DNA of 64,000 nucleotides from a virus (taxonomy: Duplodnaviria; Caudoviricetes), in the IMG/VR virus record IMGVR_UViG_2700988807_000001, positions 12,798 to 76,797 of that record; one strand, written 5' to 3'. A model generated the notes under the pieces. It worked only from the letters and a program-made list of their open reading frames with translations. It was not told the origin of the DNA and made no database searches. Numbering within the stretch: the first letter of the stretch is position 1; the number at the start of each line of letters is the position of its first letter. Both the position numbers and the translations under genes were made by a program. Positions 26,104-59,823 of the stretch are shown here, one piece after another.

Positions 26104-26145
26104 TCGCAAAAATTACACACCCTATAATGAGACCCCTATGAAAGG
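26104..26145 (+). promoter_or_regulatory. TCGCA-N14-TATAAT promoter-like element plus GAGACCCCTATGAAAGG leader, copy 1
   Basis: Conserved repeat directly upstream of the ORF at 26153. Confidence 0.8.
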
Positions 26146-26152
26146 AACTGTA

Positions 26153-26452
26153 ATGTTCAACTCCAAGCCCTCCACCAGCAAGTCTGGCCTCGAAGACGCT
26201 ATCAACAACCTTCTCTCTGAGATGGCCGGTTATGACGCGCACTCCGAAGCTTACGCCCAGATGGCGGACCAGCTTGTCAAGCTCTACGAACTGAAGGAAG
26301 TCGACCACAAGGCCGAATCCGGAAAGCGCGTAAGTGCTGACACGCTGGCCATCGTCGGCGGCAACATCTTCGGAATCGCCATGATCGTCCTCTATGAGCA
26401 GAGGGGCGTTCTGACGTCCAAGGCCCTGCCTTTGCTGATGAAGCTGAAGTAA
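26153..26452 (+). CDS. Cassette protein with C-terminal hydrophobic helix
   Basis: ATG follows the leader RBS. Confidence 0.75.
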   Translation: MFNSKPSTSKSGLEDAINNLLSEMAGYDAHSEAYAQMADQLVKLYELKEVDHKAESGKRVSADTLAIVGGNIFGIAMIVLYEQRGVLTSKALPLLMKLK

Positions 26453-26477
26453 CATACACCCACACAGGTGCCCCCGA

Positions 26478-26530
26478 CTGAGGAGGCTTGTAAGGACGAG
26501 ATTTATATCCTTGCAAGCCTTCTCAGTTTT
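26478..26530 (+). terminator. Intrinsic terminator
   Basis: CTGAGGAGGCTTGTAAGGA / TCCTTGCAAGCCTTCTCAG stem followed by TTTT. Confidence 0.7.
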
Positions 26531-26598
26531 CGTCGCATCAAAAACACGCCTTCTCAATTTTTCCCGGGGAGGACTTTTGGCTCAAAGTCTTCGAAGGG

Positions 26599-26640
26599 TC
26601 GCATGTAAAACACACTATATAATGAGACCCCTACGAAAGG
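26599..26640 (+). promoter_or_regulatory. Promoter plus leader, copy 2
   Basis: TCGCATGTAAAACACACTATATAATGAGACCCCTACGAAAGG. Confidence 0.8.
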
Positions 26641-26647
26641 AACCGAG

Positions 26648-26839
26648 ATGAAGAACTCCCCGCTCAAGGCTATCAAGAAGATCCACGCCCGACTGACCAA
26701 GACTCAGAAGGAACGCGACCGCGACTTCCTCCAGGAATACATGAAGAACAATCCTGGATGGACGACGACTACGCAGTTCCAGAAAGATTACGAGGCCGCG
26801 TTCGGCTGCAACCCTCTTGACCAGCAGCGCAAGTCCTGA
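26648..26839 (+). CDS. Cassette hypothetical protein
   Basis: Leader RBS upstream and terminator downstream. Confidence 0.7.
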   Translation: MKNSPLKAIKKIHARLTKTQKERDRDFLQEYMKNNPGWTTTTQFQKDYEAAFGCNPLDQQRKS

Positions 26840-26861
26840 TCTACAAACCTAAGTACGATCC

Positions 26862-26902
26862 AAAACCACAAGTCCAATCTATACACGGACTTTTGGTTTT
26901 TT
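26862..26902 (+). terminator. Terminator hairpin with ACAC loop
   Basis: AAAACCACAAGTCC-AATCTATACAC-GGACTTTTGGTTTTTT; near-identical copy at 29059. Confidence 0.7.
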
Positions 26903-26918
26903 CTATCTGGAGGTCGAC

Positions 26919-27134
26919 GTGACAAACAAGTTATTCGTCCTGACCAACACGCTGGTGGCGTACACGACTTCAGACTACGCTTTCGGAATTGTGGTCGGTG
27001 TCACGGCAACACATATTTACTTCAAGACCAAGTACAAAGCGATGCTGACCCCTCACGACATGGACCGTCTCAAGATGGGGCTCCCTGTTCAACTCGACAC
27101 CAGTCAAGGTCCGCTCTACATCAAGGGTATCTGA
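26919..27134 (+). CDS. Small membrane protein
   Basis: GGAGG RBS, GTG start, one hydrophobic segment. Confidence 0.6.
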   Translation: MTNKLFVLTNTLVAYTTSDYAFGIVVGVTATHIYFKTKYKAMLTPHDMDRLKMGLPVQLDTSQGPLYIKGI

Positions 27135-27177
27135 TCGCACATATTACACGCCCTATAATGAAACCCTCGACGAAAGG
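27135..27177 (+). promoter_or_regulatory. Promoter plus variant leader, copy 3
   Basis: TCGCACATATTACACGCCCTATAATGAAACCCTCGACGAAAGG. Confidence 0.75.
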
Positions 27178-27184
27178 ATCAGTA

Positions 27185-27352
27185 ATGAACACCAAGATTG
27201 CTGCCGTCAAGAACCATGTCAAGAAGCACCGAGCGATCTACGCTGCTGCAGGAACGCTAATCGTCTGCACGGCCGCGCATATTCGCATCGTGAGCAACTT
27301 GAACAGGTTCCTTGACGCGCACGACCTGATGGATCAGTACTACATTGAATGA
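27185..27352 (+). CDS. Cassette small membrane protein
   Basis: MNTKIAAVKNHVKKH followed by a hydrophobic helix. Confidence 0.7.
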   Translation: MNTKIAAVKNHVKKHRAIYAAAGTLIVCTAAHIRIVSNLNRFLDAHDLMDQYYIE

Positions 27353-27363
27353 GAGTTCAAGAG

Positions 27364-27395
27364 CTGAGATGTCCTAACACGACATTTCAGTTTTT
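27364..27395 (+). terminator. Terminator hairpin with ACAC loop
   Basis: CTGAGATGTC-CTAACAC-GACATTTCAG-TTTTT. Confidence 0.7.
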
Positions 27396-27407
27396 CTCGT
27401 ACGGGAA

Positions 27408-27449
27408 TCGCACAAAATACACACTATATAATGAGACCCCTACGAAAGG
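27408..27449 (+). promoter_or_regulatory. Promoter plus leader, copy 4
   Basis: TCGCACAAAATACACACTATATAATGAGACCCCTACGAAAGG. Confidence 0.8.
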
Positions 27450-27457
27450 AAACTGTC

Positions 27458-27607
27458 ATGAAGATCGCCAACATCAAGAACCACTTCCAGGCTCATGCCA
27501 TCGAGTACGGTGTCGCAGGTACGTTCGCAACGTACATTGTCGGCAACATGCTCCTCAGCAAGACCCTGGAGAAGGTGATTACCAAGGCCATCTCCTCCGA
27601 GAACTGA
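27458..27607 (+). CDS. Cassette small membrane protein (49 aa, not in ORF track)
   Basis: MKIANIKNHFQAHAIEYGVAGTFATYIVGNMLL after the leader RBS. Confidence 0.7.
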   Translation: MKIANIKNHFQAHAIEYGVAGTFATYIVGNMLLSKTLEKVITKAISSEN

Positions 27608-27624
27608 CCAATCAACAAGGAACC

Positions 27625-27664
27625 AAAACTGACTTGCCAATTTATACACGGCATTTCAGTTTTT
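27625..27664 (+). terminator. Terminator hairpin with ACAC loop
   Basis: AAAACTGACTTGCC-AATTTATACAC-GGCATTTCAGTTTTT. Confidence 0.6.
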
Positions 27665-27672
27665 CGTACGGA

Positions 27673-27714
27673 TCGCATATTTAACACACCTTATAATGAG
27701 ACCCCTACGAAAGG
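27673..27714 (+). promoter_or_regulatory. Promoter plus leader, copy 5
   Basis: TCGCATATTTAACACACCTTATAATGAGACCCCTACGAAAGG. Confidence 0.8.
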
Positions 27715-27724
27715 AACACATCTA

Positions 27725-27997
27725 ATGAATAAGATTCACCTCGCCCTCGCAGCAGGTACGTTCGTCGTCGCTGGGATCGCCGCTGTCAACTACGCCCATA
27801 TTTCTCGCGAAGAGAAAGCCAAGCGTGCCGAGATCAAGAAGAACCAAGAACTCGACATTCAGGCCATCAATCTCGCTGCTGAGCGAATGAAGGAAAAGTT
27901 GAACGACGGCGTTCACTTCGAATCGATCTACGACCTGTTCCGCGATTTGGGTGACGAGATCAACTTCCAGAAGATCGCAGTTCGAATCGAAGACTGA
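27725..27997 (+). CDS. Cassette membrane-anchored protein
   Basis: N-terminal TM helix followed by a charged helix. Confidence 0.75.
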   Translation: MNKIHLALAAGTFVVAGIAAVNYAHISREEKAKRAEIKKNQELDIQAINLAAERMKEKLNDGVHFESIYDLFRDLGDEINFQKIAVRIED

Positions 27998-28002
27998 CTC
28001 AG

Positions 28003-28039
28003 AAACCTAAACCCACACGCAACACGGGTTTTAGGTTTT
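28003..28039 (+). terminator. Terminator hairpin with ACAC loop
   Basis: AAACCTAAACCC-ACACGCAACAC-GGGTTTTAGGTTTT. Confidence 0.65.
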
Positions 28040-28044
28040 GTCTT

Positions 28045-28086
28045 TCGCAGGAAAAACACACATTATAATGAGACCCCTACGAAAGG
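28045..28086 (+). promoter_or_regulatory. Promoter plus leader, copy 6
   Basis: TCGCAGGAAAAACACACATTATAATGAGACCCCTACGAAAGG. Confidence 0.8.
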
Positions 28087-28093
28087 ACATATC

Positions 28094-28324
28094 ATGAAGA
28101 ACAAGCTTGCTTCCGTCAAGAAGTTCGTGAAAGACAACGAAATCGTTATCGCTACAACAGCAATCCTCGCAGCAACTGCTGGCGCCACCATTGCCCTGAC
28201 TCACTACGCAGTCAAGATGGAAAACGCCGCGGCTGACTCCGAAGCATTGTTCTTGAAGGAGCACGGTTCGCAGGTCTACCGCGAAACCAACCACGGAACC
28301 ATCTACTTCAGCATGAACCCCTAA
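28094..28324 (+). CDS. Cassette small membrane protein
   Basis: MKNKLASVKKFVKDN followed by a TM helix. Confidence 0.75.
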   Translation: MKNKLASVKKFVKDNEIVIATTAILAATAGATIALTHYAVKMENAAADSEALFLKEHGSQVYRETNHGTIYFSMNP

Positions 28325-28334
28325 GTAAGAACCG

Positions 28335-28370
28335 AAACCACGAGCCCAAGCAACACGGGCTTTTGGTTTT
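28335..28370 (+). terminator. Terminator hairpin with ACAC loop
   Basis: AAACCACGAGCCC-AAGCAACAC-GGGCTTTTGGTTTT. Confidence 0.65.
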
Positions 28371-28375
28371 ACCAA

Positions 28376-28400
28376 TCGCAGAAAAAACACGCGCTATAAT
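28376..28400 (+). promoter_or_regulatory. Promoter copy 7 (no mRNA leader; precedes tRNA-like RNA)
   Basis: TCGCAGAAAAAACACGCGCTATAAT. Confidence 0.75.
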
Positions 28401-28486
28401 GAAAGGAAAGACTCGTAGCTCAGTTGGAATGAGCGTCGTCAGCAATGACGAAGGTCGCAGGTTCGAGTCCTGCCGAGCTTTCCTTC
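28401..28486 (+). ncRNA. tRNA-like RNA lacking a canonical anticodon loop
   Basis: D arm GCTC-AGTTGGAAT-GAGC, T arm GCAGG-TTCGAGT-CCTGC, middle arm TCGTCA-GCAA-TGACGA, extended bulged acceptor-like stem, no CCA. Confidence 0.75.
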
Positions 28487-28498
28487 TTATTTTTGCCT

Positions 28499-28523
28499 TC
28501 GCAGAAAAAACACACACTATAAT
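28499..28523 (+). promoter_or_regulatory. Promoter copy 8 (no mRNA leader)
   Basis: TCGCAGAAAAAACACACACTATAAT. Confidence 0.75.
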
Positions 28524-28648
28524 GAGAAGGAAACTTCTCCAATAAGAGAAAGGTGAGACGCGAATGCGTAGGTGAAACTCCTACCCACCTGGCGCAAACA
28601 ACAATAATCACGAGTTTTCAGCGGACCGTGAGCCCATGTTCTCTTATA
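28524..28648 (+). ncRNA. Putative structured ncRNA
   Basis: GAGAAG-GAAA-CTTCTC hairpin; closing stem ATAAGAGAA/TTCTCTTAT; AGGTG/CACCT; GTAGG-TGAAACT-CCTAC T-loop-like arm; T-run follows. Confidence 0.6.
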
Positions 28649-28753
28649 GTTTTTGCTTTATTTTACCTGAATTCGTCAGAGTGACGTTTTAGCCCATACC
28701 CCAGGTAGGGTCAGAACGTGGCTCTGGCCACTTCATGTATTTTTACGTAGGAA

Positions 28754-28795
28754 TCGCATGTAAAACACACCATATAATGAGACCCCTACGAAAGG
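28754..28795 (+). promoter_or_regulatory. Promoter plus leader, copy 9
   Basis: TCGCATGTAAAACACACCATATAATGAGACCCCTACGAAAGG. Confidence 0.8.
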
Positions 28796-28801
28796 ATTAC
28801 C

Positions 28802-29053
28802 ATGATCAACGAGCTCAACGCCATCAAGCAGATCGTTGTCAACAACCCTACCGTCGTCAAGGCTACCCTCGCTGCAGCCGGACTGGCTGTCGGAACCACT
28901 GTCGCATACCGGATCAAGAAGAAAGAAGCTCTTCTTGCTGGAGGCGCTCAGTGGATGTCCGTCGAACAGTACGAGCAGCACGTAGCCGACAACGAAGGTG
29001 TTGACCGCAACGACCTCCTTGAGGACGAGTACGTCGTCATCGACCCTCAGTAA
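28802..29053 (+). CDS. Cassette small membrane protein
   Basis: Amphipathic N-terminus, TM helix, acidic tail. Confidence 0.75.
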   Translation: MINELNAIKQIVVNNPTVVKATLAAAGLAVGTTVAYRIKKKEALLAGGAQWMSVEQYEQHVADNEGVDRNDLLEDEYVVIDPQ

Positions 29054-29058
29054 GAACC

Positions 29059-29098
29059 AAAAACCATAAGTCCAATCTATACACGGACTTTTGGTTTT
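29059..29098 (+). terminator. Terminator hairpin with ACAC loop
   Basis: Near-identical to the 26862 hairpin. Confidence 0.7.
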
Positions 29099-29104
29099 AC
29101 CCTT

Positions 29105-29146
29105 TCGCATATTTTACACACCCTATAATGAGACCCCTATGAAAGG
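29105..29146 (+). promoter_or_regulatory. Promoter plus leader, copy 10
   Basis: TCGCATATTTTACACACCCTATAATGAGACCCCTATGAAAGG. Confidence 0.8.
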
Positions 29147-29150
29147 ACCT

Positions 29151-29417
29151 ATGATGGAAATCAAGAACGAGATCAACGCTAAGATCGATTCCACCAAGAA
29201 GTTCGTAAAGAAGCACAAGACCTTCCTCGCATATACTGCGGGCGTTGTTGTCGGAGCTACTGGAGTGGCTGTTGCATTGAGCAATCAGTCAGCCCTGATA
29301 GTAACCCGAGAACAAATCCGCCACATGCAGAGCGGTGGCGTGGTTGCATACGAATCTCCTGTTGGAACGATCCTTACTTGGATCAAGCCCGACAACATCA
29401 ACATCCCCACAACGTAA
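29151..29417 (+). CDS. Cassette small membrane protein
   Basis: KIDSTKKFVKKHK followed by a TM helix. Confidence 0.75.
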   Translation: MMEIKNEINAKIDSTKKFVKKHKTFLAYTAGVVVGATGVAVALSNQSALIVTREQIRHMQSGGVVAYESPVGTILTWIKPDNINIPTT

Positions 29418-29424
29418 GTCAACG

Positions 29425-29456
29425 ACTGAAGTTCCCTAACAAGGAATTTCAGTTTT
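29425..29456 (+). terminator. Terminator hairpin
   Basis: ACTGAAGTTCC-CTAACAA-GGAATTTCAGT-TTT. Confidence 0.6.
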
Positions 29457-29505
29457 CCTTTTAAGGACAAAGGTTTACAACCTCGCATATTTCAAAGGAG
29501 AACCA

Positions 29506-29742
29506 ATGTCCAAAGTCCAACTACTCAGACTGATCGGATCTCTGTTCATCATCGAGTCCGCAATCCTCGTCAAGATAGCTTGGGATCTTCACGACCGACA
29601 GCAAGATTTCGAAACTTCGGATGCGCTTCTGAATTACTGTCTCGACAAAGTCAATGAGGAAGCCGGGTTCGACGAGTTTGACATCGTTGCTCTGAACACG
29701 ATCTTGGAGACAAACGGATCCATATTTCACAAAGGTCTCTAA
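29506..29742 (+). CDS. Small membrane protein
   Basis: AAAGGAG RBS; N-terminal TM helix. Confidence 0.7.
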   Translation: MSKVQLLRLIGSLFIIESAILVKIAWDLHDRQQDFETSDALLNYCLDKVNEEAGFDEFDIVALNTILETNGSIFHKGL

Positions 29743-29753
29743 CGTAACTTAAA

Positions 29754-29795
29754 TCGCAGAAAAAACACACCCTATAATGAGACCCCTATGAGAGG
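29754..29795 (+). promoter_or_regulatory. Promoter plus leader, copy 11
   Basis: TCGCAGAAAAAACACACCCTATAATGAGACCCCTATGAGAGG. Confidence 0.8.
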
Positions 29796-29802
29796 ATACG
29801 CC

Positions 29803-29895
29803 ATGACCGCTATTGTCGCTCCCGTGCTCATCACCACCTTCCTGGTTGTGCTGTACATGATCGCGCCGAAGCTTGCTGGTTACATCACCAAGTAG
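29803..29895 (+). CDS. 30-aa hydrophobic peptide (not in ORF track)
   Basis: MTAIVAPVLITTFLVVLYMIAPKLAGYITK, located between promoter/leader and terminator. Confidence 0.7.
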   Translation: MTAIVAPVLITTFLVVLYMIAPKLAGYITK

Positions 29896-29899
29896 ATCG

Positions 29900-29944
29900 A
29901 AAAGCTTGAAGCTCCCTAACACGGAGTTTCAGCTTTCTGTTTTT
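29900..29944 (+). terminator. Terminator hairpin with ACAC loop
   Basis: AAAGCTTGAAGCTCC-CTAACAC-GGAGTTTCAGCTTT. Confidence 0.65.
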
Positions 29945-29991
29945 CCTCTCTCCCACACACCTATATTTTGATCACCTATGAAGGGACCACC

Positions 29992-30207
29992 ATGAAGAAG
30001 CTGGGCATCGTTGCCGTCTCCACCACCGTAGGATTCGCCGCGGGAGTGTCGAGCGTGGGCTACATCATCACGAACAAGAAGATCATGAAGAAGGTCTTGA
30101 TGGCATATTTCAAGACGATCGACTTCTCAATGACCGACGAACAGACTCGAGTTCTCGGAGAGCTAACTCAGCAGATGAAGTTGGCAAAGACCAAGAAGAA
30201 GCCCTAA
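29992..30207 (+). CDS. Small membrane protein
   Basis: N-terminal hydrophobic helix; RBS AAGGGA. Confidence 0.65.
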   Translation: MKKLGIVAVSTTVGFAAGVSSVGYIITNKKIMKKVLMAYFKTIDFSMTDEQTRVLGELTQQMKLAKTKKKP

Positions 30208-30252
30208 CCTCTCGTCTCCACGCGCCACACTCATATTTGAAAGGCTATACCT

Positions 30253-30432
30253 ATGCGCAAGGCAACGTTCGTCCTGTCCGCTCTCAGCTTCGTCACCTCC
30301 GTCGCGACCCTCGGGGTTCTCGCTTACGGAGCAAAGAAGGTCCACAACGATATTCAGGGGATTCGAGAAAAGGTCAACACCTCCATCGGCCAGTTCAAGA
30401 AGACCCTCGTCAACTTCGACTTCTCCGTCTAA
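30253..30432 (+). CDS. Small membrane protein (59 aa, not in ORF track)
   Basis: MRKATFVLSALSFVTSVATLGVLAYG after GAAAGG. Confidence 0.65.
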   Translation: MRKATFVLSALSFVTSVATLGVLAYGAKKVHNDIQGIREKVNTSIGQFKKTLVNFDFSV

Positions 30433-30460
30433 CTCACCGATCCAACGAAAGGGTAAGAAC

Positions 30461-30742
30461 ATGAGCGCGTACAACTCCTTCAACGACTTCCTCGCCAACA
30501 ACCCGCAGTGGATCATATTCATCAGCATCGCCCTTCCGTGGGTCGGTCTCATGATGCTGGTGATGTTCTTCGAGAAGGGACGGAAGAAGCACAAGGCGGT
30601 TCGTAAGGCTTACAAGGCCGGCGAACTCCAGAAGCGCCCGAGCCGTCGCACCAACCTCACAGTCGTCGAGCCCGTGTCGAATCGTAAGGACGTTCCGTCC
30701 GACTACTTCGATCGTGTCAACGAATTCCGAGCAAGCCTCTAA
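30461..30742 (+). CDS. Membrane protein
   Basis: TM helix WIIFISIALPWVGLMMLVMFF plus basic tail. Confidence 0.7.
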   Translation: MSAYNSFNDFLANNPQWIIFISIALPWVGLMMLVMFFEKGRKKHKAVRKAYKAGELQKRPSRRTNLTVVEPVSNRKDVPSDYFDRVNEFRASL

Positions 30743-30760
30743 GAAAGGTTTTCGCCTTCA

Positions 30761-30985
30761 ATGCTTTCGTCTACCATCAGCGTTCTCTGGGATATTCTTC
30801 TCGTCTTCTTGCTGATCATCGGTATCATCATCGTGATCGGACTTGTCACTGGCTGGATGGCTGTCGTGTGGACCTACGTCACGCGATTCGTCAATGCCTA
30901 TCGTCGGGCCTCGCGTGAGCTAGAAGCTGCCGAGGAGCTCGAAAGGGTCGATGACGACGATCCCTACGGCAAGCTTGTCGACTGA
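30761..30985 (+). CDS. Membrane protein
   Basis: Long hydrophobic N-terminal half. Confidence 0.65.
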   Translation: MLSSTISVLWDILLVFLLIIGIIIVIGLVTGWMAVVWTYVTRFVNAYRRASRELEAAEELERVDDDDPYGKLVD

Positions 30986-31025
30986 CCAAATCTATCAACC
31001 ATATCTGAAACAACTCTGGAGAATC

Positions 31026-31820
31026 ATGAACCTCTCTGTCCTGGCGAAGAACCTCGAAAAGTTCGCGGTCGCCAATTCCCCCGCAATCCTGACTGGCATC
31101 GCTGTCACCGGCACGGTCGCAACGGCAATCCTGGCCGGCAAGGCATCGTTCAAGGCCGCGAAGATCATCGCCGGCGAAGAGGAGAAGATCAAGGACCGTA
31201 TGGTCGAGGTCTCCGACGACGAGGAGACTGACCAAGAGCTCGATGTGAAGGCAAAGACCCTTCTCGTCTGGAAGCTCTATATTCCAGCAGCAAGCACCTG
31301 CGTCACGACCGTCATGGCCATGATCGCTGCCAACCAGATCGGCACCCGACGCACCGCGGCAATGGCAGCGGCATATTCTCTCTCGGAGAAGGCGTTCGGT
31401 GAGTACCGTGAGAAGATCGTCGAGAAGATGGGTCCTGCGAAGGAAGCCAAGGCTCGCGACGAACTTGCTCAGGAGCGCGTCTCTCGCACTCCGATGCCCT
31501 CCAGCCAGCTCATCATCACGGGTAACGAGGTTTGCTGCTTCGATCAGCACAGCGGTCGTTATTTCCTGAGCACGGTGGAAGATCTGAAGCAGGCTCAGAA
31601 CAACACGAACTACCGGATCATCAACGACGGTTACCAGAGCCTGAACGATTTCTACGATCGCATCGGCCTCGATATCGTCCCGACCGGCGAAGAGCTCGGA
31701 TGGAACACCGACACGAAGCTGGAGCTGTACTTCTCGACCGTCATGTCTCCTGATCAGCGCCCCTGCGTCGCCATCGAGTTCGCCAAGGGTCCCATCGCAA
31801 ACTACTACAAGGGTCACTGA
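31026..31820 (+). CDS. Conserved phage protein (DUF6353-like), paralog of 37205
   Basis: NSPAILTG..TAILA..KLYIPA..AAAYS..EYREKI..SLNDFYD..GW. Confidence 0.7.
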   Translation: MNLSVLAKNLEKFAVANSPAILTGIAVTGTVATAILAGKASFKAAKIIAGEEEKIKDRMVEVSDDEETDQELDVKAKTLLVWKLYIPAASTCVTTVMAMIAANQIGTRRTAAMAAAYSLSEKAFGEYREKIVEKMGPAKEAKARDELAQERVSRTPMPSSQLIITGNEVCCFDQHSGRYFLSTVEDLKQAQNNTNYRIINDGYQSLNDFYDRIGLDIVPTGEELGWNTDTKLELYFSTVMSPDQRPCVAIEFAKGPIANYYKGH

Positions 31821-31852
31821 CCACCAACTACCATATTTGGGGAGGAACCACC

Positions 31853-32095
31853 ATGCACCACAAACAAGATCGTGAATTCACCTATGAGACGGGCACGGAC
31901 GAGCCCCTCAATCCGGACCCGGCCATCGCCGCAAGTATGACGGAGCAGGGCGTCAGCAAGTGCGAGAACAGTTGCAAGCTCTACAAGCATCCGCGAGCAG
32001 ACATCATCGTCCTCGCACACAACTCGTCGTACGGATGCAAGCGCACCAAGTCCCATATCGTGAGTGAGTTCACGGAGGCGAACATCAATGCCTGA
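31853..32095 (+). CDS. Hypothetical protein (Cys/His-containing)
   Basis: GGAGGA RBS. Confidence 0.6.
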   Translation: MHHKQDREFTYETGTDEPLNPDPAIAASMTEQGVSKCENSCKLYKHPRADIIVLAHNSSYGCKRTKSHIVSEFTEANINA

Positions 32096-32288
32096 GCGTG
32101 AGTACTGGATGGTTCCTCTCCACGAGAGTCAGCCTGAGGACACCTACAGTCGCCTGCTTCTCAAGGTGTCGGGGCAATTCGCTGATATTCTGACGGTCGA
32201 CGGCGGATACGAAAAGATCTACCTCGTCACCGAAGAGACCGCGCCGGCTCAGGACGATATTCTGAAGAGGGTGTTGGCTGATGCCTGA
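32088..32288 (+). CDS. Hypothetical protein
   Basis: GGAGG RBS; overlaps both neighbours. Confidence 0.55.
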   Translation: MPEREYWMVPLHESQPEDTYSRLLLKVSGQFADILTVDGGYEKIYLVTEETAPAQDDILKRVLADA

Positions 32289-32514
32289 GCACATGACTGT
32301 CGCCCTCAAGGAGCTCTTTCCCGAGTCGTTGTGGAACGAGCTCTACCTGCGGACCGTACGACGTGAAGACGTCTACAGTTCGCACATGCTCATCACCTCG
32401 ACCGGGGAAGTCAAGGAGTTGATCTCCACTCCGGGGTTCGAGGGTGTCTTCTCGCCGTTGTTGGTCAACCATAACGCAAACAATCTTCTAATGGGTATCG
32501 AAAGGGGTCTCTGA
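32281..32514 (+). CDS. Hypothetical protein
   Basis: Tightly packed ORF. Confidence 0.55.
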   Translation: MPEHMTVALKELFPESLWNELYLRTVRREDVYSSHMLITSTGEVKELISTPGFEGVFSPLLVNHNANNLLMGIERGL

Positions 32515-32864
32515 TGTGCAATTATCCCGGTCCGATGATGGTTTCCATCGGAGACAGCGTCCCGGAAGAGACGTGGAATCGTATCAAGTTGCAGTGTGCG
32601 CTCAACTTGTACGGACGAATTGCTCCCGTCGTGACCGATGGCATTCGGAACGTCGGCGAGGTGTTTGTCAAAATGGGTGAGTCCATGAAGAACATCGACT
32701 TCAGTCACGCACAAGAGCAGATCGAGAAGGTCACACAAACACCTATTGCCGGCTTCCACTCCGTGGCCAATCCGATGCAGAAGGTCGAGTACGGCATCAA
32801 GGCGGCGTCGACGTCTCATATTCTCGAGTCCCTCGGGGTGACAAGCGACGGGCGTCATGTGTGA
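32514..32864 (+). CDS. Hypothetical protein
   Basis: TGATG coupling with the upstream gene. Confidence 0.55.
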   Translation: MCNYPGPMMVSIGDSVPEETWNRIKLQCALNLYGRIAPVVTDGIRNVGEVFVKMGESMKNIDFSHAQEQIEKVTQTPIAGFHSVANPMQKVEYGIKAASTSHILESLGVTSDGRHV

Positions 32865-33273
32865 GGCGGGGACGTGCCGGCCGTGTCGGCTAGAGGATCG
32901 TTTGACCGATCGAGTCATGGGGACGACGCGAGACTACATCGAGTTCGTAAAGCTCCCGACCGTCGAACAGAACATGGCGAATCGTAAGATCCATGGACTG
33001 TCTCTTATTTCCTCGACCAACTCCAAGGTCCAGAGACAGACTCCGCCTCCCGGAAACCTCTCGTCCAAAGAGAGCATTGCGGCTCGAAAGAAGCGAGAGA
33101 ACGCAAAGCGGAAGGCAAACCGAGAGCTTCGCAACGGCCGGCTATATTCTCTCGGATGCCCTGAGCATGGTACACCTTCCGGATACAAGCATTGGCACTG
33201 TCGATGCGCACCTTGTACGGACGCGCACACCAAAGAGCGAAACGGTTCGTACCAAGGAAAGCAGGTAGGATGA
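32857..33273 (+). CDS. Zn-binding protein with HGT..Y..CRC..C motif
   Basis: EHGTPSGYKHWHCRCAPC. Confidence 0.65.
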   Translation: MCEAGTCRPCRLEDRLTDRVMGTTRDYIEFVKLPTVEQNMANRKIHGLSLISSTNSKVQRQTPPPGNLSSKESIAARKKRENAKRKANRELRNGRLYSLGCPEHGTPSGYKHWHCRCAPCTDAHTKERNGSYQGKQVG

Positions 33274-33500
33274 CCGCCCCAATCACACTCGAAGATCGAG
33301 AGCGTTGGCGAAAGAACCACACGAACAAGCTTGCCATCCGCAAGATGAATCGGAAGATGGTCAACGGACGACTCACGTCCACCATGCTCCAAGAGCATGG
33401 TACGCCTTCCGGATACAACAATTGGTTCTGCCGATGCATCCCCTGCACCCAGGCATACAACGGTCGCAAGAAAGACAACCGCAAAAAGCGCCGTCGGTAG
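33270..33500 (+). CDS. Zn-binding protein with HGT..Y..CRC..C motif, paralog
   Basis: EHGTPSGYNNWFCRCIPC. Confidence 0.65.
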   Translation: MTAPITLEDRERWRKNHTNKLAIRKMNRKMVNGRLTSTMLQEHGTPSGYNNWFCRCIPCTQAYNGRKKDNRKKRRR

Positions 33501-33535
33501 CCCACAAAGACTTATCTTCCCCAGAGACGTCTGCG

Positions 33536-33577
33536 TCGCAGAAAAAACACGCGCTATAATGAGACCCCTATGAAAGG
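33536..33577 (+). promoter_or_regulatory. Promoter plus leader, copy 12
   Basis: TCGCAGAAAAAACACGCGCTATAATGAGACCCCTATGAAAGG. Confidence 0.8.
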
Positions 33578-33584
33578 AACAAAC

Positions 33585-33821
33585 ATGTCTGATCAGAACG
33601 AGAACGTCGTCATCGAAGAAGATGCAATCGTCGTTCGTTTCCCCCGCTTCAAGAAGATCTTGAGGAAGATCGAAGACAACTCGGCACTCATCGCAGCTGT
33701 TACCGCGACTGTAGTGACCTCGGTTGGAATCATCGCCCTCAAGCGACTCGACGAGAAGACGGTGGAGACGACGGAGGTTGTGGAAACAACGGTGATCGAC
33801 GTCACTCCCACTGAAGACTGA
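33585..33821 (+). CDS. Cassette small membrane protein
   Basis: Basic amphipathic stretch, TM helix, acidic tail; terminator-like hairpin at 33842-33886. Confidence 0.7.
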   Translation: MSDQNENVVIEEDAIVVRFPRFKKILRKIEDNSALIAAVTATVVTSVGIIALKRLDEKTVETTEVVETTVIDVTPTED

Positions 33822-33906
33822 TATTCCCACACAGAGATCGAAAAGCGAAAGGCTTAGTAAAGAAATTTACTAGGTCTTTCTCTTTTGCTTTCACGGACAA
33901 AGAGGA

Positions 33907-34413
33907 TTGATTCCGCAAATGGACCACAAGACGTTCAACGCATATTTGGAAGAGAAGTTCGACACAATTCGATCGACTCTCGGTCTCAAGGGTATGGAGT
34001 ACGTCCCCGACGAGGGTGGCTCTCGCTTCCACAACTTCGATATTGCGGCAGCCTTCAACGACGAGTCCCCCGAGAAGGCGCTCTGGGGAATGCTCACCAA
34101 GCATCTCGTGAGTATCGCGGACATGGTGAAGGTAGATCCGACCAAGCACGCCATGGAGGTGTGGGACGAGAAGATCGGTGACGCTCTCAACTACCTCCTC
34201 CTGCTCAACGGCATGGTGAAGGATCATCACGCCACGGCAGAGCTGGTTCGATTCCACACCGGCCTCATCAATGCCATGACTCCTCCGGACACCAACGTGA
34301 CGAGCGCAGTCATTCAGAGTAACGACCACCTGTCGGGTCTGGCGAGTGGCGGAATCGAGTCAGTTCGTAAGGACGACACACATGACAGTGCTTGCTGTTC
34401 CCAGCAGCCCTGA
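33907..34413 (+). CDS. All-alpha NTP pyrophosphatase-like protein (Nmad1/DUF1599-like)
   Basis: KGMEY..FHNF..KH..EKIGDALNYLLLL pattern. Confidence 0.55.
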   Translation: MIPQMDHKTFNAYLEEKFDTIRSTLGLKGMEYVPDEGGSRFHNFDIAAAFNDESPEKALWGMLTKHLVSIADMVKVDPTKHAMEVWDEKIGDALNYLLLLNGMVKDHHATAELVRFHTGLINAMTPPDTNVTSAVIQSNDHLSGLASGGIESVRKDDTHDSACCSQQP

Positions 34414-34455
34414 CCATATTCTCACCCAGCAAGAACACACAAGGAGCACAAAGTA

Positions 34456-35097
34456 ATGCTGAAGCAGACCGTCGAGTACACCGACTTCGATGACAACCGT
34501 TGCGCCGAGACGCTCTATTTCAATCTCACCAAGACCGAGCTTGCAGAGAACGCTCACCTGCAGGATCGTCTCGAGTCGATGCAGAAGATGTTTGGTGGTG
34601 AGAAGCGTCAGCTCGAGAGCGCGGAGATCAAGGAGATCCTCGAACTCGTCAAGACGATCATGCGTATTTCCTACGGTGTTCGCAGTGCCGATGGCAAGCG
34701 ATTCATCAAGACGGAGGATCAGTGGGTCGAGTTCACCCAGACGGCCGTCTACGACGAGTTCCTCATCTCCATGTTCACGGATCCGGACAAGATGTTCGCG
34801 TTCATGTACGGGATCATGCCGGCTGACATGCGCGATCAGGCAAAGGCCGAGGCCGAGCGACTTGCAGCGGAGCGTTCCATTTCTCAGGCAGCTCAGAACA
34901 CTCAGGCTCCGACTCCGCCGGCTCCTCCCGCCGCTCCTGCTGCGATGACCACGGGTGTCCCTACCAACCCGCCTGTGGATATTGTGGTCAACGAGCAGCC
35001 GGCAGCCGGTCAGCCCACCCAGGAACAGATGGCTGCTTACCTGCGCGATCAGCAGGCTCGTGGCGGACTGACCCAGCCGGGCTACTTGCAGGGCTGA
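34456..35097 (+). CDS. Conserved phage protein with Pro/Ala-rich tail
   Basis: YTDFDD..LYFNLTKTE..SYGVRSADGKRFIK. Confidence 0.7.
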   Translation: MLKQTVEYTDFDDNRCAETLYFNLTKTELAENAHLQDRLESMQKMFGGEKRQLESAEIKEILELVKTIMRISYGVRSADGKRFIKTEDQWVEFTQTAVYDEFLISMFTDPDKMFAFMYGIMPADMRDQAKAEAERLAAERSISQAAQNTQAPTPPAPPAAPAAMTTGVPTNPPVDIVVNEQPAAGQPTQEQMAAYLRDQQARGGLTQPGYLQG

Positions 35098-35106
35098 TTC
35101 ATATTT

Positions 35107-35222
35107 GAGGAAGAGGGGTTTGGCAAGGGTCCTTTGTAGGGGTCTCGCCCTAGTCCGGATGCCAAACTTAAACGACAGCCGTAGTGCTGTGGGGAAGCAG
35201 CGAATCATGCTCCCTCGACCTC
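35107..35222 (+). ncRNA. Putative sRNA antisense to the cassette mRNA leader
   Basis: Intergenic; stems GTTTGGCA/TGCCAAAC, AGGGT/GCCCT and ACAGC/GCTGT; loop CCTTTGTAGGGGTCTC is complementary to GAGACCCCTAC(G)AAAGG. Confidence 0.6.
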
Positions 35223-35256
35223 ACCACACACCTATATTTGAGTTGAAAGGATCGTC

Positions 35257-35643: not shown

Positions 35644-35657
35644 ACACGCCCTATAAT
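35633..35657 (+). promoter_or_regulatory. Promoter copy 13 (no mRNA leader)
   Basis: TCGCAGGATAAACACGCCCTATAAT. Confidence 0.75.
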
Positions 35658-35950: not shown

Positions 35951-35958
35951 ATTTCGCA

Positions 35959-36000: not shown

Positions 36001-36008
36001 AACTGGTA

Positions 36009-49595: not shown

Positions 49596-49599
49596 ATCT

Positions 49600-50235: not shown

Positions 50236-50241
50236 TAAAAC

Positions 50242-50724
50242 GTGATCCTCATCGACATTCTGTTACTTGCGCTCTGGCTCTACGGCTTATATTTGTCGAG
50301 TCAGAGCCTGACATTCGGCTATGTGCTGACACTAACTGTGCCGGTCGCCTGGATCATCTACGAAGTATCAGAGGGTAGATACGGACTCGTAATCATGGTG
50401 GTTGCAGTCGGGAGCACCTACGCTTTAGGCGTGGCTTGTTGGCTCAAACGGAAACACTCTCGTCGACCGAAGCCGCCTCGCAAGCTATATTTCGTTGACG
50501 AAGATGGCGCTATTCATTGGGAGTACCTATCTTCGGACGGGAAACTCATTCACGCGTCGAGAGATTTCTACAGCCCAAAGATTGCGGCTATCGATGCGGT
50601 CTTCTCGCTTGAGGGCGACTTTTCCCAAGACGACAGAGATCTTCACATCATCGGAAAACAAGAAGTCGTGGATCAGTTCTATCTAGAGAGTGTCCGACTT
50701 CGAGAAGACAGGAAAGATCTATGA
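50242..50724 (+). CDS. 3-TM domain fused to YegP-like domain
   Basis: TM helices, then PRKLYF..IHWEYLSSDGKLIHAS. Confidence 0.6.
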   Translation: MILIDILLLALWLYGLYLSSQSLTFGYVLTLTVPVAWIIYEVSEGRYGLVIMVVAVGSTYALGVACWLKRKHSRRPKPPRKLYFVDEDGAIHWEYLSSDGKLIHASRDFYSPKIAAIDAVFSLEGDFSQDDRDLHIIGKQEVVDQFYLESVRLREDRKDL

Positions 50725-57020: not shown

Positions 57021-57045
57021 TCGCATGAAAAACACGTCATATGAT
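57021..57045 (+). promoter_or_regulatory. Promoter copy 15 (TATGAT variant)
   Basis: TCGCATGAAAAACACGTCATATGAT with the same 14-nt spacer. Confidence 0.65.
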
Positions 57046-57109
57046 GAGAACCCACTAACGAAACCAGACTCAGGCCCTCAACTGAGATCCAGGTCGTTGG
57101 TGGGTTTTC
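57046..57109 (+). ncRNA. Putative small hairpin ncRNA
   Basis: GAGAACCCACTAACGA/TCGTTGGTGGGTTTTC stem enclosing CTCAG-GCCCTCAA-CTGAG. Confidence 0.55.
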
Positions 57110-57176
57110 GTCTTCCCTACCAACCCTATATTTTTGTCATAGGGTATGGTCTCGCAAACTTATGAAAGGCAACCCT

Positions 57177-57356
57177 ATGCACTACGACAGCAAAGCAGCC
57201 CAGTACGACGCCGAGGTTCCGACTTTGGATGAGAGCACGTCTCCCGAGTCGTACACCCGCACACGCAAGTGTATCGAGTTCACGGCGTTCTTCTTGCTCA
57301 GCTATGCCGTCGCGCTGGTGGTCATCTACACGCTTCTCAAACTGTTCGGCGTATAG
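57177..57356 (+). CDS. Small membrane protein
   Basis: GAAAGG RBS; C-terminal TM helix. Confidence 0.6.
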   Translation: MHYDSKAAQYDAEVPTLDESTSPESYTRTRKCIEFTAFFLLSYAVALVVIYTLLKLFGV

Positions 57357-57369
57357 AAAGGAGTAGAGG

Positions 57370-58998
57370 ATGCTGTTCGGCTCCCACGACTTCCAACTCG
57401 ACGACACGCAAAGCTGTGGGGATCGCATCCAACAACTCCGTATGCGGATCCTGGTCCACTCATATTTGTACTACGAGCTGGATCAGAACATTCTCACAGA
57501 TCGGGAGTTCGACACTCTCGCCTACGAGCTGGTCGACTTACAGAAGCGATATCCTGAGGTCTCGGAAGCGGTGTGGTACGAGCGTGACGCTTTCAGAGAC
57601 TTCGACGGCTCCACGGGATTCCATCTCCCATACAAGAAGAACGAAGTAGTTCCCCAGATCGCACAGATCCTCATAGACACTGTGGGGAACGAGACGCCGG
57701 CCGAGGCCGATGACGAGCACTACTATATTCCCCGGCTCGACGAGCTACACAAGACAGAAGAGAAGAAGGAGAGACCCATGGGAGGTGTGCAACTTTATCC
57801 ACATCAACAGGAGGCTGTAGAGAAGCTGTCCAACGGCAAGGTACTGGTCGGAGGTGTAGGGACGGGCAAGACGATCACGTCGCTCGTATATTTCTACACC
57901 AAGGTCATGGGCGGCACGTTGGGTGACCCCGCATCCATCAAGACACCGAAGGACATCTACGTCTTCACCACGGCCCGAAAGCGTGACGAGCTGGACTGGC
58001 AGAAGGACGCAGCCAAGCTGATCATATCTCGGGAACGGGACGCTTCTGTCTGTGGTATCAAGCTCACGGTCGACTCCTACAACAACATCAAGAAGTATGC
58101 CAGCGTCAAGGATGCATTCATCATTCTCGACGAGCAGCGCATGGTGGGATCCGGTGCATGGACACGCGCCTTCATATCCATGGCCAAGCACAACGAGTGG
58201 ATCATGCTCAGTGCCACACCGGGTGACAAGTGGGAGGACTATATTCCACTGTTCATCGCCAACGGGTTCGTGAAGAATCGCACCGAGTTCAAGCGGAACC
58301 ACATCGTCTACGCCTCCTACTCCAAGTTCCCGAAGGTGGAGCGATATTTGGAGGTCGGCAAGCTGCTCAAGTGGCGTCGTCAGATTCTGGTAGAGATGCC
58401 GTACGCCCGACACACCACGCGCAATCTCCATGACGTGACAGTTCCGCACGACAAGGAGAAGATGGATCTGGTCGTCAAGAAGCGGTGGAACCCGTACGAG
58501 AACCGCCCACTCAAGGACGTCGCCGAGATGTTCATCTGCATGCGGAGGGTGGCATATTCTGACCAGTCCCGTCGAGAGGCTGTGATCCAGCTACTCAAAC
58601 ACAACCACCCCCGACTGATCGTGTTCTACAACTTCAACTACGAGTTGGAGATTCTACGGACGATCGCCAAGGACATGCCAGGTTTGGAGGTTGCCGAGTG
58701 GAATGGCCAGAAGCACGAGCAGGTTCCGACTGGGGAGCACTGGCTATATCTTGTGCAGTACGTGGCTGGAGCTGAGGCGTGGAACTGCGTTGCTACGGAC
58801 GCGATCTGCTTCTACTCCCAGACGTACTCGTACAAGAACTTCGAACAAGCACAGGGAAGGATCGACAGGCTCAATACGCCCTTCAAGCAACTGCACTACT
58901 ACATTTTGAAGAGCACGAGCCAGATTGATCTTGCCGTTTCTCGGTCACTTTCTGAAAAGAGGTCTTTCAACGAGTCCGAAATGTCCGACTTTTGGTGA
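57370..58998 (+). CDS. SF2 helicase with N-terminal NAD-ligase Ia-like domain
   Basis: LYPHQ, GVGTGKT, ILDEQ, LSATP, QAQGRIDR; N-terminal HSYLYY..LTDREFD.L..EL..L. Confidence 0.85.
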   Translation: MLFGSHDFQLDDTQSCGDRIQQLRMRILVHSYLYYELDQNILTDREFDTLAYELVDLQKRYPEVSEAVWYERDAFRDFDGSTGFHLPYKKNEVVPQIAQILIDTVGNETPAEADDEHYYIPRLDELHKTEEKKERPMGGVQLYPHQQEAVEKLSNGKVLVGGVGTGKTITSLVYFYTKVMGGTLGDPASIKTPKDIYVFTTARKRDELDWQKDAAKLIISRERDASVCGIKLTVDSYNNIKKYASVKDAFIILDEQRMVGSGAWTRAFISMAKHNEWIMLSATPGDKWEDYIPLFIANGFVKNRTEFKRNHIVYASYSKFPKVERYLEVGKLLKWRRQILVEMPYARHTTRNLHDVTVPHDKEKMDLVVKKRWNPYENRPLKDVAEMFICMRRVAYSDQSRREAVIQLLKHNHPRLIVFYNFNYELEILRTIAKDMPGLEVAEWNGQKHEQVPTGEHWLYLVQYVAGAEAWNCVATDAICFYSQTYSYKNFEQAQGRIDRLNTPFKQLHYYILKSTSQIDLAVSRSLSEKRSFNESEMSDFW

Positions 58999-59009
58999 AA
59001 ATCTGAAAA

Positions 59010-59231
59010 CTTAATACCCTATAGAAAAGGCGAAATTATAGGGTATTAAGATTCGGGATTTTGGGGTGTTTTGGGGTGTTTTTGCGGTGGGCTTTGAGAT
59101 TTGGCAGTGAACCTTGGTTGACGACCTGGGAAAACGACAAAATTCTGCCAAAAACTAACCCTAAACCTTTCCCTAGAAAGAACAACTTAATACCCTATAA
59201 TAGTGGGTATATAGGTTATTAAGTTGGTTCT
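59010..59231. repeat. AT-rich intergenic region with two CTTAATACCCTATA inverted repeats (origin candidate)
   Basis: Inverted repeats at 59010-59050 and 59184-59225; TTTTGGGGTG direct repeat between them. Confidence 0.6.
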
Positions 59232-59293
59232 ACAAAAGTTTTTTTCCGGACAAATCTTGGCAAAAGTGACGAGCACACAGGAACGAGACAAAC

Positions 59294-59785
59294 ATGCCTG
59301 AAATCTGGATGCCTATCCGTGATTTTCCAAAGTATCTCATCAGTCCAGAAGGAGCCATCAAGAACAAGCAAAGGCGATTGCTCGTTAAAACCAGCCAGAA
59401 CGCTCAGGGCGTCGTTATGGTGAAGCTTATGGGGGATGATGGCCGACACACCCGTTCAGTCGCTCTGCTGGTCGCTCAGGCCTATCTACCGCCCCCTCGT
59501 AATCCCTCCTACAACTCGGTCATATTCTTGGATGGTGATCGAACCAACTGTTCGGCCCTGAATTTGATGTGGCGTCCTCGTTGGTATGCGGTTCGCTACC
59601 ACAAGATGTTCGAGCGTGAACCCATGAACATCTCTGTGATGATCGAGGACACGGGCGAGACCTTCGGCACTCTTCGAGAGGCCTGCATGAAGTATGGGCT
59701 CGACGAGCAGTATACCTATATCGACATGCTCAACGGTGATCCCTGTTTCCACTACGGATACCGGTTTCGTCACCTAAGTGAGTAA
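59294..59785 (+). CDS. NUMOD4 / HNH-like endonuclease (HNH residues look degenerate)
   Basis: EIWMPIRDFPKYLISPEG; VAQAYL..FLDGDRTNCSALNLMW. Confidence 0.7.
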   Translation: MPEIWMPIRDFPKYLISPEGAIKNKQRRLLVKTSQNAQGVVMVKLMGDDGRHTRSVALLVAQAYLPPPRNPSYNSVIFLDGDRTNCSALNLMWRPRWYAVRYHKMFEREPMNISVMIEDTGETFGTLREACMKYGLDEQYTYIDMLNGDPCFHYGYRFRHLSE

Positions 59786-59798
59786 AGTGGGTATTTTA

Positions 59799-59823
59799 CC
59801 GCACACAAAACATGGTATATAAT
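59799..59823 (+). promoter_or_regulatory. Promoter copy 16 (CCGCA variant) upstream of nuclease-RNAP genes
   Basis: CCGCACACAAAACATGGTATATAAT with a 14-nt spacer. Confidence 0.6.

Follow-up and report, generated by a model that had tools for sequence, protein, structure and literature searches.

Layout of the window and of the repeated element

The stretch of DNA analyzed here (the window) is the right-hand 64 kb, positions 12798-76797, of a 76,797-bp phage genome (IMG/VR record IMGVR_UViG_2700988807_000001), and it carries sixteen copies of a promoter-like element, TCGCA-N14-TATAAT, together with the gene of a 904-residue RNA polymerase (RNAP) homologue. Coordinates below are those of the window unless stated otherwise. 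This genome of a Rhodococcus phage is 84% identical, across the matched parts, to Rhodococcus phage ReqiPoco6, of the genus Pepyhexavirus. All genes are on the + strand. From left to right, the terminase and structural genes are followed by tail and lysis genes until ~26 kb. Small genes then occupy 26-36 kb and replication genes 36-59 kb, and the right end, adjoining cos, is taken up by a nuclease/polymerase operon. Most of the elements stand ahead of small genes, which are variable and occupy the most plastic part of the genome, and, judging by the sequence, the genes behind them look like the earliest genes of the phage.

By searching the window for YCGCA-N14-TATRAT, we found exactly 16 starts, all on the + strand, for a chance expectation of 0.06 (standard deviation 0.24), and 0 of 100 shuffles reached 16. 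These are the same starts, with the same fixed 14-nt gap, that had been listed in an earlier reading of the letters (the original prediction). The ACAC described there as usual inside the gap is present in 15 of the 16 copies, copy 16 having ACAT. The hexamer is TATAAT in 15 copies and TATGAT in one (copy 15). A position weight matrix (PWM) was built from the same 16 sites, and is hence partly circular; scanned over both strands of the 76,797-bp genome, it recovered only these sites, with nothing else above 8 bits. Fifteen copies scored 40.1-53.7 bits and copy 16 scored 22.6 bits. The elements are one tight family of 15 plus one outlier, copy 16, at 59799.

The element is longer than first described. 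GARA stands directly 3' of the hexamer in 15 of the 16 copies, and the full form reads TCGCA-N4-(T/A)(T/A)ACAC(A/G)C.., TATAAT, then GA(G/A)A. Relative to the base after the hexamer, the centers of TCGCA, (T/A)(T/A)ACA and TATAAT lie at -23, -14 and -3.5; since the spacing is 9-10.5 bp, the three blocks would fall on one face of the helix. Of the 11 copies with a protein gene behind them, most continue into the leader ACCCCTAYGAAAGGA, i.e. ACCCCTA(C/T)GAAAGGA, followed by N5-9 and ATG, and this leader contains the Shine-Dalgarno (SD) sequence GAAAGGA.

At the left of the small-gene block, copy 1 (26104-26128, 47.5 bits) has the leader with its SD and a small open reading frame (ORF) behind it. 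Copies 2 (26599-26623), 3 (27135-27159, leader variant GAAACCCTCGACGAAAGGA) and 4 (27408-27432) precede the small ORFs 26648-26839, 27158-27352 and 27431-27607, respectively, and copies 5 (27673-27697), 6 (28045-28069) and 9 (28754-28778) precede the ORFs 27725-27997, 28094-28324 and 28802-29053. Behind copy 10 (29105-29129) lies another small ORF. Copy 11 (29754-29778), which has the top PWM score of 53.7 bits, opens a gene run to ~33.5 kb, copy 12 (33536-33560) is followed by the ORF 33570-33821 and further genes, and copy 14 (35959-35983) stands at the head of the replication-gene block with its primase/polymerase (39577-43464). No ORF follows the remaining four tight copies: copy 7 (28376-28400) leads into a tRNA-like gene (28409-28483), and copies 8 (28499-28523), 13 (35633-35657, followed by GAGAAGAAACG...) and 15 (57021-57045, the TATGAT copy, 40.1 bits) into structured non-coding sequence. 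Copy 16 (59799-59823), a variant of the form CCGCA..ACATGG..TATAAT-AGAAGGGATAGAATA, lies ahead of the nuclease/exonuclease/polymerase operon.

A hairpin with a T-run lies directly upstream of at least 6 of the 16 copies (those at 26599, 27408, 27673, 28045, 28376 and 29105), and therefore the small genes appear as separate terminator-promoter-leader cassettes. The hairpins at 27360-27400, 27630-27665, 28000-28040, 28330-28370 and 29060-29100 have common loop sequences ending in ..ACACGG.., so that terminator and promoter have seemingly been duplicated together as one module. An extra TATAAT (59196-59201) was seen ahead of an HNH endonuclease gene, within the inverted repeat ATACCC-TATAAT-AGT-GGGTAT. 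It has the ACCC-TATAAT-AG core without TCGCA and ACAC, and may be a degenerate or imported promoter.

RNAs behind the elements and position of the RNA start

According to the original prediction, RNA stems begin just after the hexamers of three copies. We could recover all three, two of them strong and one weak. First, the long hairpin 57046-57109, behind copy 15, starts at nucleotide 1 after the hexamer and has a U-rich 3' side (-35.2 kcal/mol, z -5.5, 0 of 200 shuffles as good). Such a hairpin may represent either a small RNA or an attenuator preceding the ligase-domain/helicase gene 57370-58998. Second, the precursor stem of the tRNA-like gene starts at nucleotide 3 (28403; z -3.5, 0 of 200 shuffles as good). 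Third, the hairpin GAGAAG-GAAA-CTTCTC (28524-28539), which opens the non-coding RNA-like sequence behind copy 8, starts at nucleotide 1 and is the weak one (z -1.6, 16 of 200 shuffles as good). Besides the tRNA, an Rfam scan of the window gave no match, and therefore the RNAs after copies 8, 13 and 15 fall in no described Rfam family.

These stems bear on where RNA synthesis would begin. In an oral Caudovirus that also encodes the polymerase (hereafter the oral phage), a tRNA-like gene starts 3 nt after the hexamer. Its acceptor stem would be cut if RNA began 6-8 nt downstream, and an earlier start is therefore favored. Also, all 52 sites listed by the strict-pattern count across genomes (see below) have a purine next to the hexamer on its 3' side. 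Thus, the proposal that transcription starts at or near the end of the hexamer is indirectly favored by the oral-phage tRNA-like gene and by the two stems at nucleotides 1-3.

The tRNA-like genes found directly behind these promoter-like elements in three lineages look aberrant (window 28409-28483; L006 20099-20165 and 20487-20553; L007 9880-9959). The one of the window is called Ala by ARAGORN, with the anticodon agc at position 33, and scores 42.1 bits with the Rfam tRNA model; as we read the sequence, its anticodon loop has 6 nt. Its counterpart in ReqiPoco6 is annotated "tRNA-OTHER". ARAGORN found none of the tRNA-like genes of Lactococcus phage P092 or of the oral phage, while Rfam did find them.

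We also considered that the repeats might primarily be protein-binding sites, recombination sites marking the boundaries of small-gene shuffling, or repressor operators, instead of promoters. The repeats do bracket small variable genes in the most plastic part of the genome, and the mobile promoter/stem-loop cassettes of T4-type phages are a known analogue. However, every copy is oriented with the genes at a fixed distance to the SD and the start codon, and some copies precede tRNA-like or hairpin RNAs where there is no ORF. As these features fit transcription starts, a role in shuffling would be additional to a promoter function and not an alternative to it, and we regard a primarily non-promoter role as very improbable.

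A single-chain two-barrel RNA polymerase homologue at the right end

The ORF 60746-63460 (+ strand) encodes the 904-residue protein, which the original prediction had already called an RNAP and which is the candidate reader of the promoters. That call held up: on the basis of its PHROG assignment, its catalytic motif and its modeled fold, the protein is a single-chain two-barrel RNA polymerase homologue of the YonO/QDE-1 type, with N-terminal and C-terminal helix-turn-helix (HTH) modules. Pfam matched the HTH modules only, namely HTH_38 and Sigma70_r4_2 at residues 77-112 (Sigma70_r4_2 at 90-112) and, in the C-terminal part, HTH_23 and HTH_7 at 871-900 (HTH_23 at 877-900). With PHROGs, the protein falls in phrog_4291, "RNA-dependent RNA polymerase". 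The metal-binding DxDGD loop is present as GADFDGD at residues 516-522, and A517-D522 (ADFDGD) is invariant across 37 aligned homologues that are 44-92% identical to the protein.

An AlphaFold2 model made from this 37-sequence alignment had a mean predicted local distance difference test score (pLDDT) of 83.1 and a predicted template modeling score (pTM) of 0.72. When the model was compared with the PDB by Foldseek, it matched QDE-1 (E 1.4e-9, probability 1.00), and the Thermus-phage RNAPs P32 gp64 and P74 gp62 (8f72, 8f5m; E ~1e-7) and plant RDR2 were also matched with probability 1.00. P23-45 gp96 (8h2n, 8h2m) was matched more weakly, as were cellular beta-prime-type subunits and gp66 of the crAss phage phi14:2. 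The TM-scores were low (~0.3), as expected for multi-domain models. Sequence-only searches of the PDB, with the protein or with the 37-sequence profile, returned HTH matches only, the polymerase fold being seen by structure alone. A T7-like identity was rejected, there being no T7-like Pfam or fold match.

The family is large: INPHARED contains 248 phage records of it, and a search at E <=0.001 gave 2,131 cluster representatives (50% identity). In the accessible portion of a preprint (10.1101/842583), the protein is described as a putative YonO-like RNAP that has HTH domains at its two termini, and as a signature of an actinophage supercluster and of the Lactococcus 1706 and Faecalibacterium groups; promoters are not mentioned in that portion.

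Co-occurrence of the element and the polymerase across phages

The original prediction had proposed to search related phages for co-occurrence of the motif with the polymerase gene. We compared eight other polymerase-bearing genomes (37-50 kb of each): Gordonia phage Kenosha, Streptomyces phage DrGrey, Arthrobacter phages Mudcat and Gordon, Curtobacterium phage Daddyjeff, the oral phage and Lactococcus phages P092 and 1706. ReqiPoco6, a close relative, adds little to this comparison. Two patterns were counted on the +/- strands, a strict one, [TC]CGC[AG]-N14-TAT[AG]AT, for which shuffles gave 0.12 or less, and a looser core, [AT][AG]CA-N5-TATA[AG]T-RR. With the strict pattern we counted 16/0 in the present genome, 7/0 in Kenosha, 6/0 in DrGrey, 4/0 in Mudcat, 8/0 in Gordon, 5/0 in Daddyjeff, 6/0 in the oral phage and 0/1 in P092. 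With the looser core the counts were 15/0, 8/0, 11/0, 7/0, 5/0, 5/0, 6/0 and 10/0 in the same order, and 12/0 in 1706. The variant of P092 reads TTTTA(A/T)GTTTTACATACCC-TATAAT-GA(A/G)A and that of 1706 (C)GCA-N14-TATAGT-AGAAAGAAGG. The per-lineage consensus sequences align as TCGCA-N4-(T)TACA-N5-TATA(A/G)T-RRRA, and this architecture was found in all of the 9 other lineages examined that bear the polymerase, which range from Lactococcus to Streptomyces phages. By contrast, neither pattern nor a single TATAAT occurs in 50 kb each of ReqiPine5 and ReqiDocB7, two phages of the same host (R. equi) that lack the polymerase.

We then scanned IMG/VR with the exact string TCGCA-N4-TTACA-N5-TATAAT, which matched at least 106 stretches. 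The matches listed include 28 contigs of at least 45 kb, 22 of which were searched for the polymerase, after exclusion of five contigs equal in length to isolate genomes already covered (L016, L023, L075, L083, L090) and of L088. Among these matches listed, 21 of the 22 motif-bearing contigs encode a polymerase homologue (E 1e-144 or better), including 15 of the 15 that are at least 90% complete. Thus, the co-occurrence holds, with 9 of 9 lineages that encode the polymerase and 0 of 2 phages that do not. The polymerases of the motif-sharing phages are only 37-55% identical, and the hosts come from two phyla.

Timing and delivery of the polymerase

The polymerase gene is located 25-35 kb downstream of the small-gene elements, at the right end, near cos and the late genes. 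Early use of the elements would therefore require that the enzyme arrive with the virion, and such delivery is suggested, indirectly, by three kinds of observation. First, the depositors of phage 1706 labeled its homologue (EU081845 orf75) a "structural protein", and ReqiPoco6 gp106 bears the same label by similarity. Second, the first 33 residues of the polymerase are disordered in the AlphaFold2 model, and in the alignment of 37 homologues the N-terminus carries an invariant H-Y-G..S-G-R..G-S peptide (DDYLAHYGILRRSGRYPWGSG in the present polymerase). Third, seven paralogous ORFs between terminase and portal (1358-7138) all open with a Pfam DUF7211 peptide (..DDFLAHYGVKGMKWGV..), and one of the seven proteins belongs to a PHROG named "virion structural protein". 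The polymerase N-terminus resembles the DUF7211 N-termini of these paralogues, at a sub-threshold level (E 0.016, 15 bits for a threshold of 27), and the DUF7211-like peptide may be a capsid-targeting signal. The case for delivery is tempered by this low score and by its reliance on database annotation and an N-terminal motif. Moreover, the HYG peptide was not found in orf62 and orf71, the other "structural proteins" of 1706 encoded away from its structural module, which therefore lend no support to a packaging signal. An eighth DUF7211 copy was seen upstream, inside a 543-codon open frame (genome 10645-12273) that lies outside the window.

Which polymerase reads the elements

The two upstream blocks, at fixed distances and kept across two host phyla, call for a conserved phage-encoded reader. 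In the backbone list, as given in the available part of the preprint (10.1101/842583), the polymerase is the only conserved DNA-binding protein named. Taking sequence and predicted structure as our basis, we consider it somewhat probable that the elements are promoters read directly by the phage's own polymerase. Thus, the original interpretation is partly supported: it is plausible and the co-occurrence that it called for is found, yet it stays unproven.

The original prediction had also noted that the spacing is unlike that of a sigma-A promoter. Consistent with this, a two-hexamer sigma-70 scan of 25500-36500 found a TTGACA-like -35 hexamer at 16-18 nt for 0 of the 14 elements of that region. 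None of the 15 tight copies has a TGn extended -10, the triplets before the hexamer being CCC, CTA, CCT, CAT, GCG, CAC, CCA and TCA. The Lactococcus versions (P092 and 1706) likewise have neither a -35 hexamer nor TGn, one or the other of which Firmicute sigma-A promoters normally need.

Several observations weigh against a reading by the phage enzyme. In every lineage the hexamer matches a sigma-A -10 perfectly or nearly so (TATAGT in 1706), with A retained at position 2 and T at position 6, the bases read by sigma region 2; a sigma-independent enzyme would have no obvious need for an exact TATAAT. The missing -35 of the actinophage copies is weak evidence, because actinobacterial sigma-A promoters often do without one. 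The co-occurrence marks a whole phage lineage and is confounded with shared ancestry, and as such it cannot single out the polymerase among the backbone genes. Also, the sole contig without a detected polymerase (1 of the 22 among the matches listed) is 78% complete, and the tRNA-like match of the oral phage reaches 28.9 bits, just below the Rfam gathering score of 29. Finally, the reports on Gordonia phages Vardy and Conley, in their accessible text, take the element as a sigma-70 -10 (PMC9671010, PMC10868162).

These points raise the question of whether the elements are ordinary strong promoters of the host sigma-A enzyme, recognized by their -10 only, with upstream blocks and leader conserved through recent duplication and recombination. 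The phage polymerase would then have other targets, such as late genes; YonO of SP-beta has this role according to the available text of PMC5467207. The perfect -10 fits this explanation, as do the sigma-70 reading by the Vardy and Conley authors (PMC9671010, PMC10868162, accessible text), the usual transcription of early phage genes by the host enzyme, the intrinsic-terminator-like hairpins of ordinary bacterial kind that flank the cassettes, and a polymerase gene at the end of the replication block, which would suit delayed-early expression. However, TCGCA and TTACA are kept with fixed spacing where the polymerases have diverged to 37-55% identity and the hosts belong to two phyla; such persistence is therefore not a matter of recent duplication. 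The explanation also sits badly with ReqiPine5 and ReqiDocB7, which do without any TATAAT in 50 kb each, with the Lactococcus versions devoid of -35 and TGn, and with the search for another repeated promoter-like motif that the polymerase might use, which found none ahead of the late genes. Overall, we find host-only transcription quite unlikely.

The upstream blocks could also be accommodated if host sigma-A used TATAAT as its -10 while a phage DNA-binding factor on TCGCA/TTACA replaced the -35 contact, comparable to the sigma appropriation at T4 middle promoters, where the MotA box lies near -30. With TATAAT at -12..-7, TCGCA lands at -31..-27, that is in the region of the T4 MotA boxes. This arrangement would account for the perfect -10 in all lineages and for the upstream blocks kept across phyla, which need a phage-encoded reader. 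The factor could be the HTH modules of the 904-residue protein, whose matches include sigma-region-4-like and other HTH families, or another conserved protein. On the other hand, the invariant catalytic ADFDGD and the polymerase fold argue that the protein polymerizes and does not merely bind, a start 6-8 nt downstream would truncate the tRNA-like gene of the oral phage, and no separate conserved activator appears in the available part of the backbone list (10.1101/842583). We therefore judge such a hybrid to be unlikely.

Returning to the phage polymerase as reader, we infer the identity of the reader, the position of the RNA start and the delivery in the virion from the observations above, and the proposed sequence of events would be as follows. 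Each early expression cassette would consist of a terminator hairpin with T-run (at least 6 of the 16 copies), the three-block promoter, a purine-rich start and, for protein genes, the fixed SD leader. The 904-residue two-barrel polymerase, and not host sigma-A, would read it by docking its HTH modules on the two upstream blocks, TCGCA and (T/A)(T/A)ACA, whereupon TATAAT would melt and RNA would begin at the end of the hexamer or no more than ~3 nt from it. The polymerase would probably be a late product that is packaged and enters the cell with the DNA, like those of N4, crAss-like phages and P23-45. The complete proposal, in which a virion-delivered 100-kDa chain with three HTH units reads a three-block double-stranded promoter without host factor and this code is kept from Lactococcus to Streptomyces phages, is put forward tentatively, as a possibility that we place short of probable.

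Copy 16 and autoregulation

Because copy 16 lies upstream of the operon that contains the RNAP gene, the original prediction had suggested autoregulation. This idea is unsupported, as copy 16, the outlier at 22.6 bits, belongs to a separate conserved variant. Its form, ..ACATGG..TATAAT-AGAAGG(G/A)AT(A/G)GAATA, recurs ahead of the nuclease/exonuclease/polymerase operon in Daddyjeff, and similar elements with weaker hexamers are found in DrGrey (TTTAAT) and Gordon (TATGAT). Thus, copy 16 is best described as a conserved variant promoter-like element with its own leader. The sequence after it, AGAAGGGATAGAATA, is kept ahead of the nuclease/polymerase operon by phages of Curtobacterium, Streptomyces and Arthrobacter (window 59786-59850; L008 33150-33210; L004 ~45850-45880; L009 ~36262-36300), and this conservation suggests a separate regulatory leader.

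Relation to known promoters and polymerases

To our knowledge, very few single-chain two-barrel RNA polymerases have a known promoter. In layout, the elements resemble T7/SP6 promoters, where one enzyme reads ~25 bp made up of an upstream A/T-rich part, a block for specificity, a TATA block that melts and, directly after it, a purine-rich start; the likeness is in layout only, the right-hand fold of those enzymes being unrelated to the two-barrel fold. With sigma-70/sigma-A and T4 MotA-dependent promoters they have a perfect -10-like hexamer in common, and an upstream block that could replace the -35. Unlike sigma-70/sigma-A promoters, they have a 14-nt gap, no -35 at 16-18 nt and no TGn, and their conservation follows the phage lineage across two phyla. 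The mobile early-promoter/stem-loop cassettes of T4-type phages likewise flank small variable early genes with terminator and early-promoter repeats; this is again a likeness by layout, as those cassettes use host sigma-70 promoters.

Among characterized systems, Thermus phage P23-45 is described, in the available text of PMC10770324, as having a virion RNAP (gp96) and a non-virion RNAP (gp64) with their own promoter motifs. Like the present phage, it is a siphovirus with single-chain two-barrel RNAPs. As set out there, the motif of the virion enzyme lies upstream of the earliest genes, only in enzyme-encoding relatives, and was argued by the same co-occurrence logic, so that P23-45 is a precedent for a siphovirus delivering a two-barrel RNAP. 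In that work, start sites, ChIP-seq and enzyme activity were measured, whereas the present system is known from sequence and predicted structure alone. Unlike the present polymerase, the virion enzyme of P23-45 is a fusion with the tape measure, and no HTH modules are reported for it within the text available; the motifs of that phage are AT-rich and GC-rich, in contrast to a three-block motif ending in TATAAT. YonO, of the Bacillus prophage SP-beta, is similarly a ~100-kDa single-chain RNAP distantly related to multisubunit RNAPs, and the present family is placed with YonO-like proteins in the accessible portion of the preprint (10.1101/842583). As far as the available text of PMC5467207 goes, YonO uses one start site to transcribe late genes, neither its promoter nor any cofactors are defined, and no terminal HTH modules are described, unlike the present polymerase, which has them at both ends.

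The element itself is already in print for Gordonia phages of cluster DJ. The accessible text of the notes on Vardy and Conley (PMC9671010, PMC10868162) reports an intergenic motif of 50 bp and 43 bp, respectively, in 5 copies each. It is the same element, as it lies between genes in the central small-gene region, contains TATAAT and ends near the start codon, and Kenosha, also of cluster DJ, has 7 copies of TCGCA-N14-TATAAT-GAGACCCCTA. The upstream blocks, the polymerase and conservation beyond the cluster are not mentioned in that text. Our literature search, whose scope did not extend to Summer et al. 2011 and supplements, found no paper linking the motif to the polymerase or describing the three-block architecture or its cross-phylum conservation; a search with the motif string gave 10 matches, none on phages. 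Hence, the link to the polymerase and the three-block, cross-phylum view were not found in print.

If the phage polymerase does read the elements, they would provide a ready-made, sequence-defined promoter code for 248 sequenced phages and thousands of metagenomic relatives, together with a polymerase that has its DNA readers built in and is only 904 residues long. Injecting one's own polymerase would then be a common strategy among siphoviruses of Gram-positive bacteria, and actinobacteria and lactic acid bacteria might gain an orthogonal expression system from the pair. Should host sigma-A be the reader instead, the elements would still be unusually strong, portable promoter/leader cassettes.

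A strand-biased pentamer

Apart from the elements, the pentamer ATATT showed a strong strand bias, with 176 copies on the + strand for 6 on the - strand genome-wide (172/6 within the window), and AATAT is nearly absent throughout the genome. ATATT falls in all three codon phases and is made by bent codon pairs, GAT-ATT being used 38 times and GAT-ATC 5 times, though ATC is the preferred Ile codon. From 0 in the first 8 kb, its density climbs until genome 56-60 kb, where it is 23 per 4 kb, and it is down to 4 across the polymerase gene. The extended form SKATATTYY occurs in 58 copies, on the + strand only, for 4.1 expected. The same skew was observed in Gordonia phage Kenosha (154/10) and Streptomyces phage DrGrey (95/1), and was not found in Mudcat (89/95), P092 (215/197) or the two control phages. 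A priming site, a nicking or modification site and an elongation signal are possibilities for its role. In the replication region, a paralogous ORF family (46830-50500) shares an N-terminal ..NK-LYFE.. segment, the DNA of which (CTATATTTC) supplies several ATATT sites.

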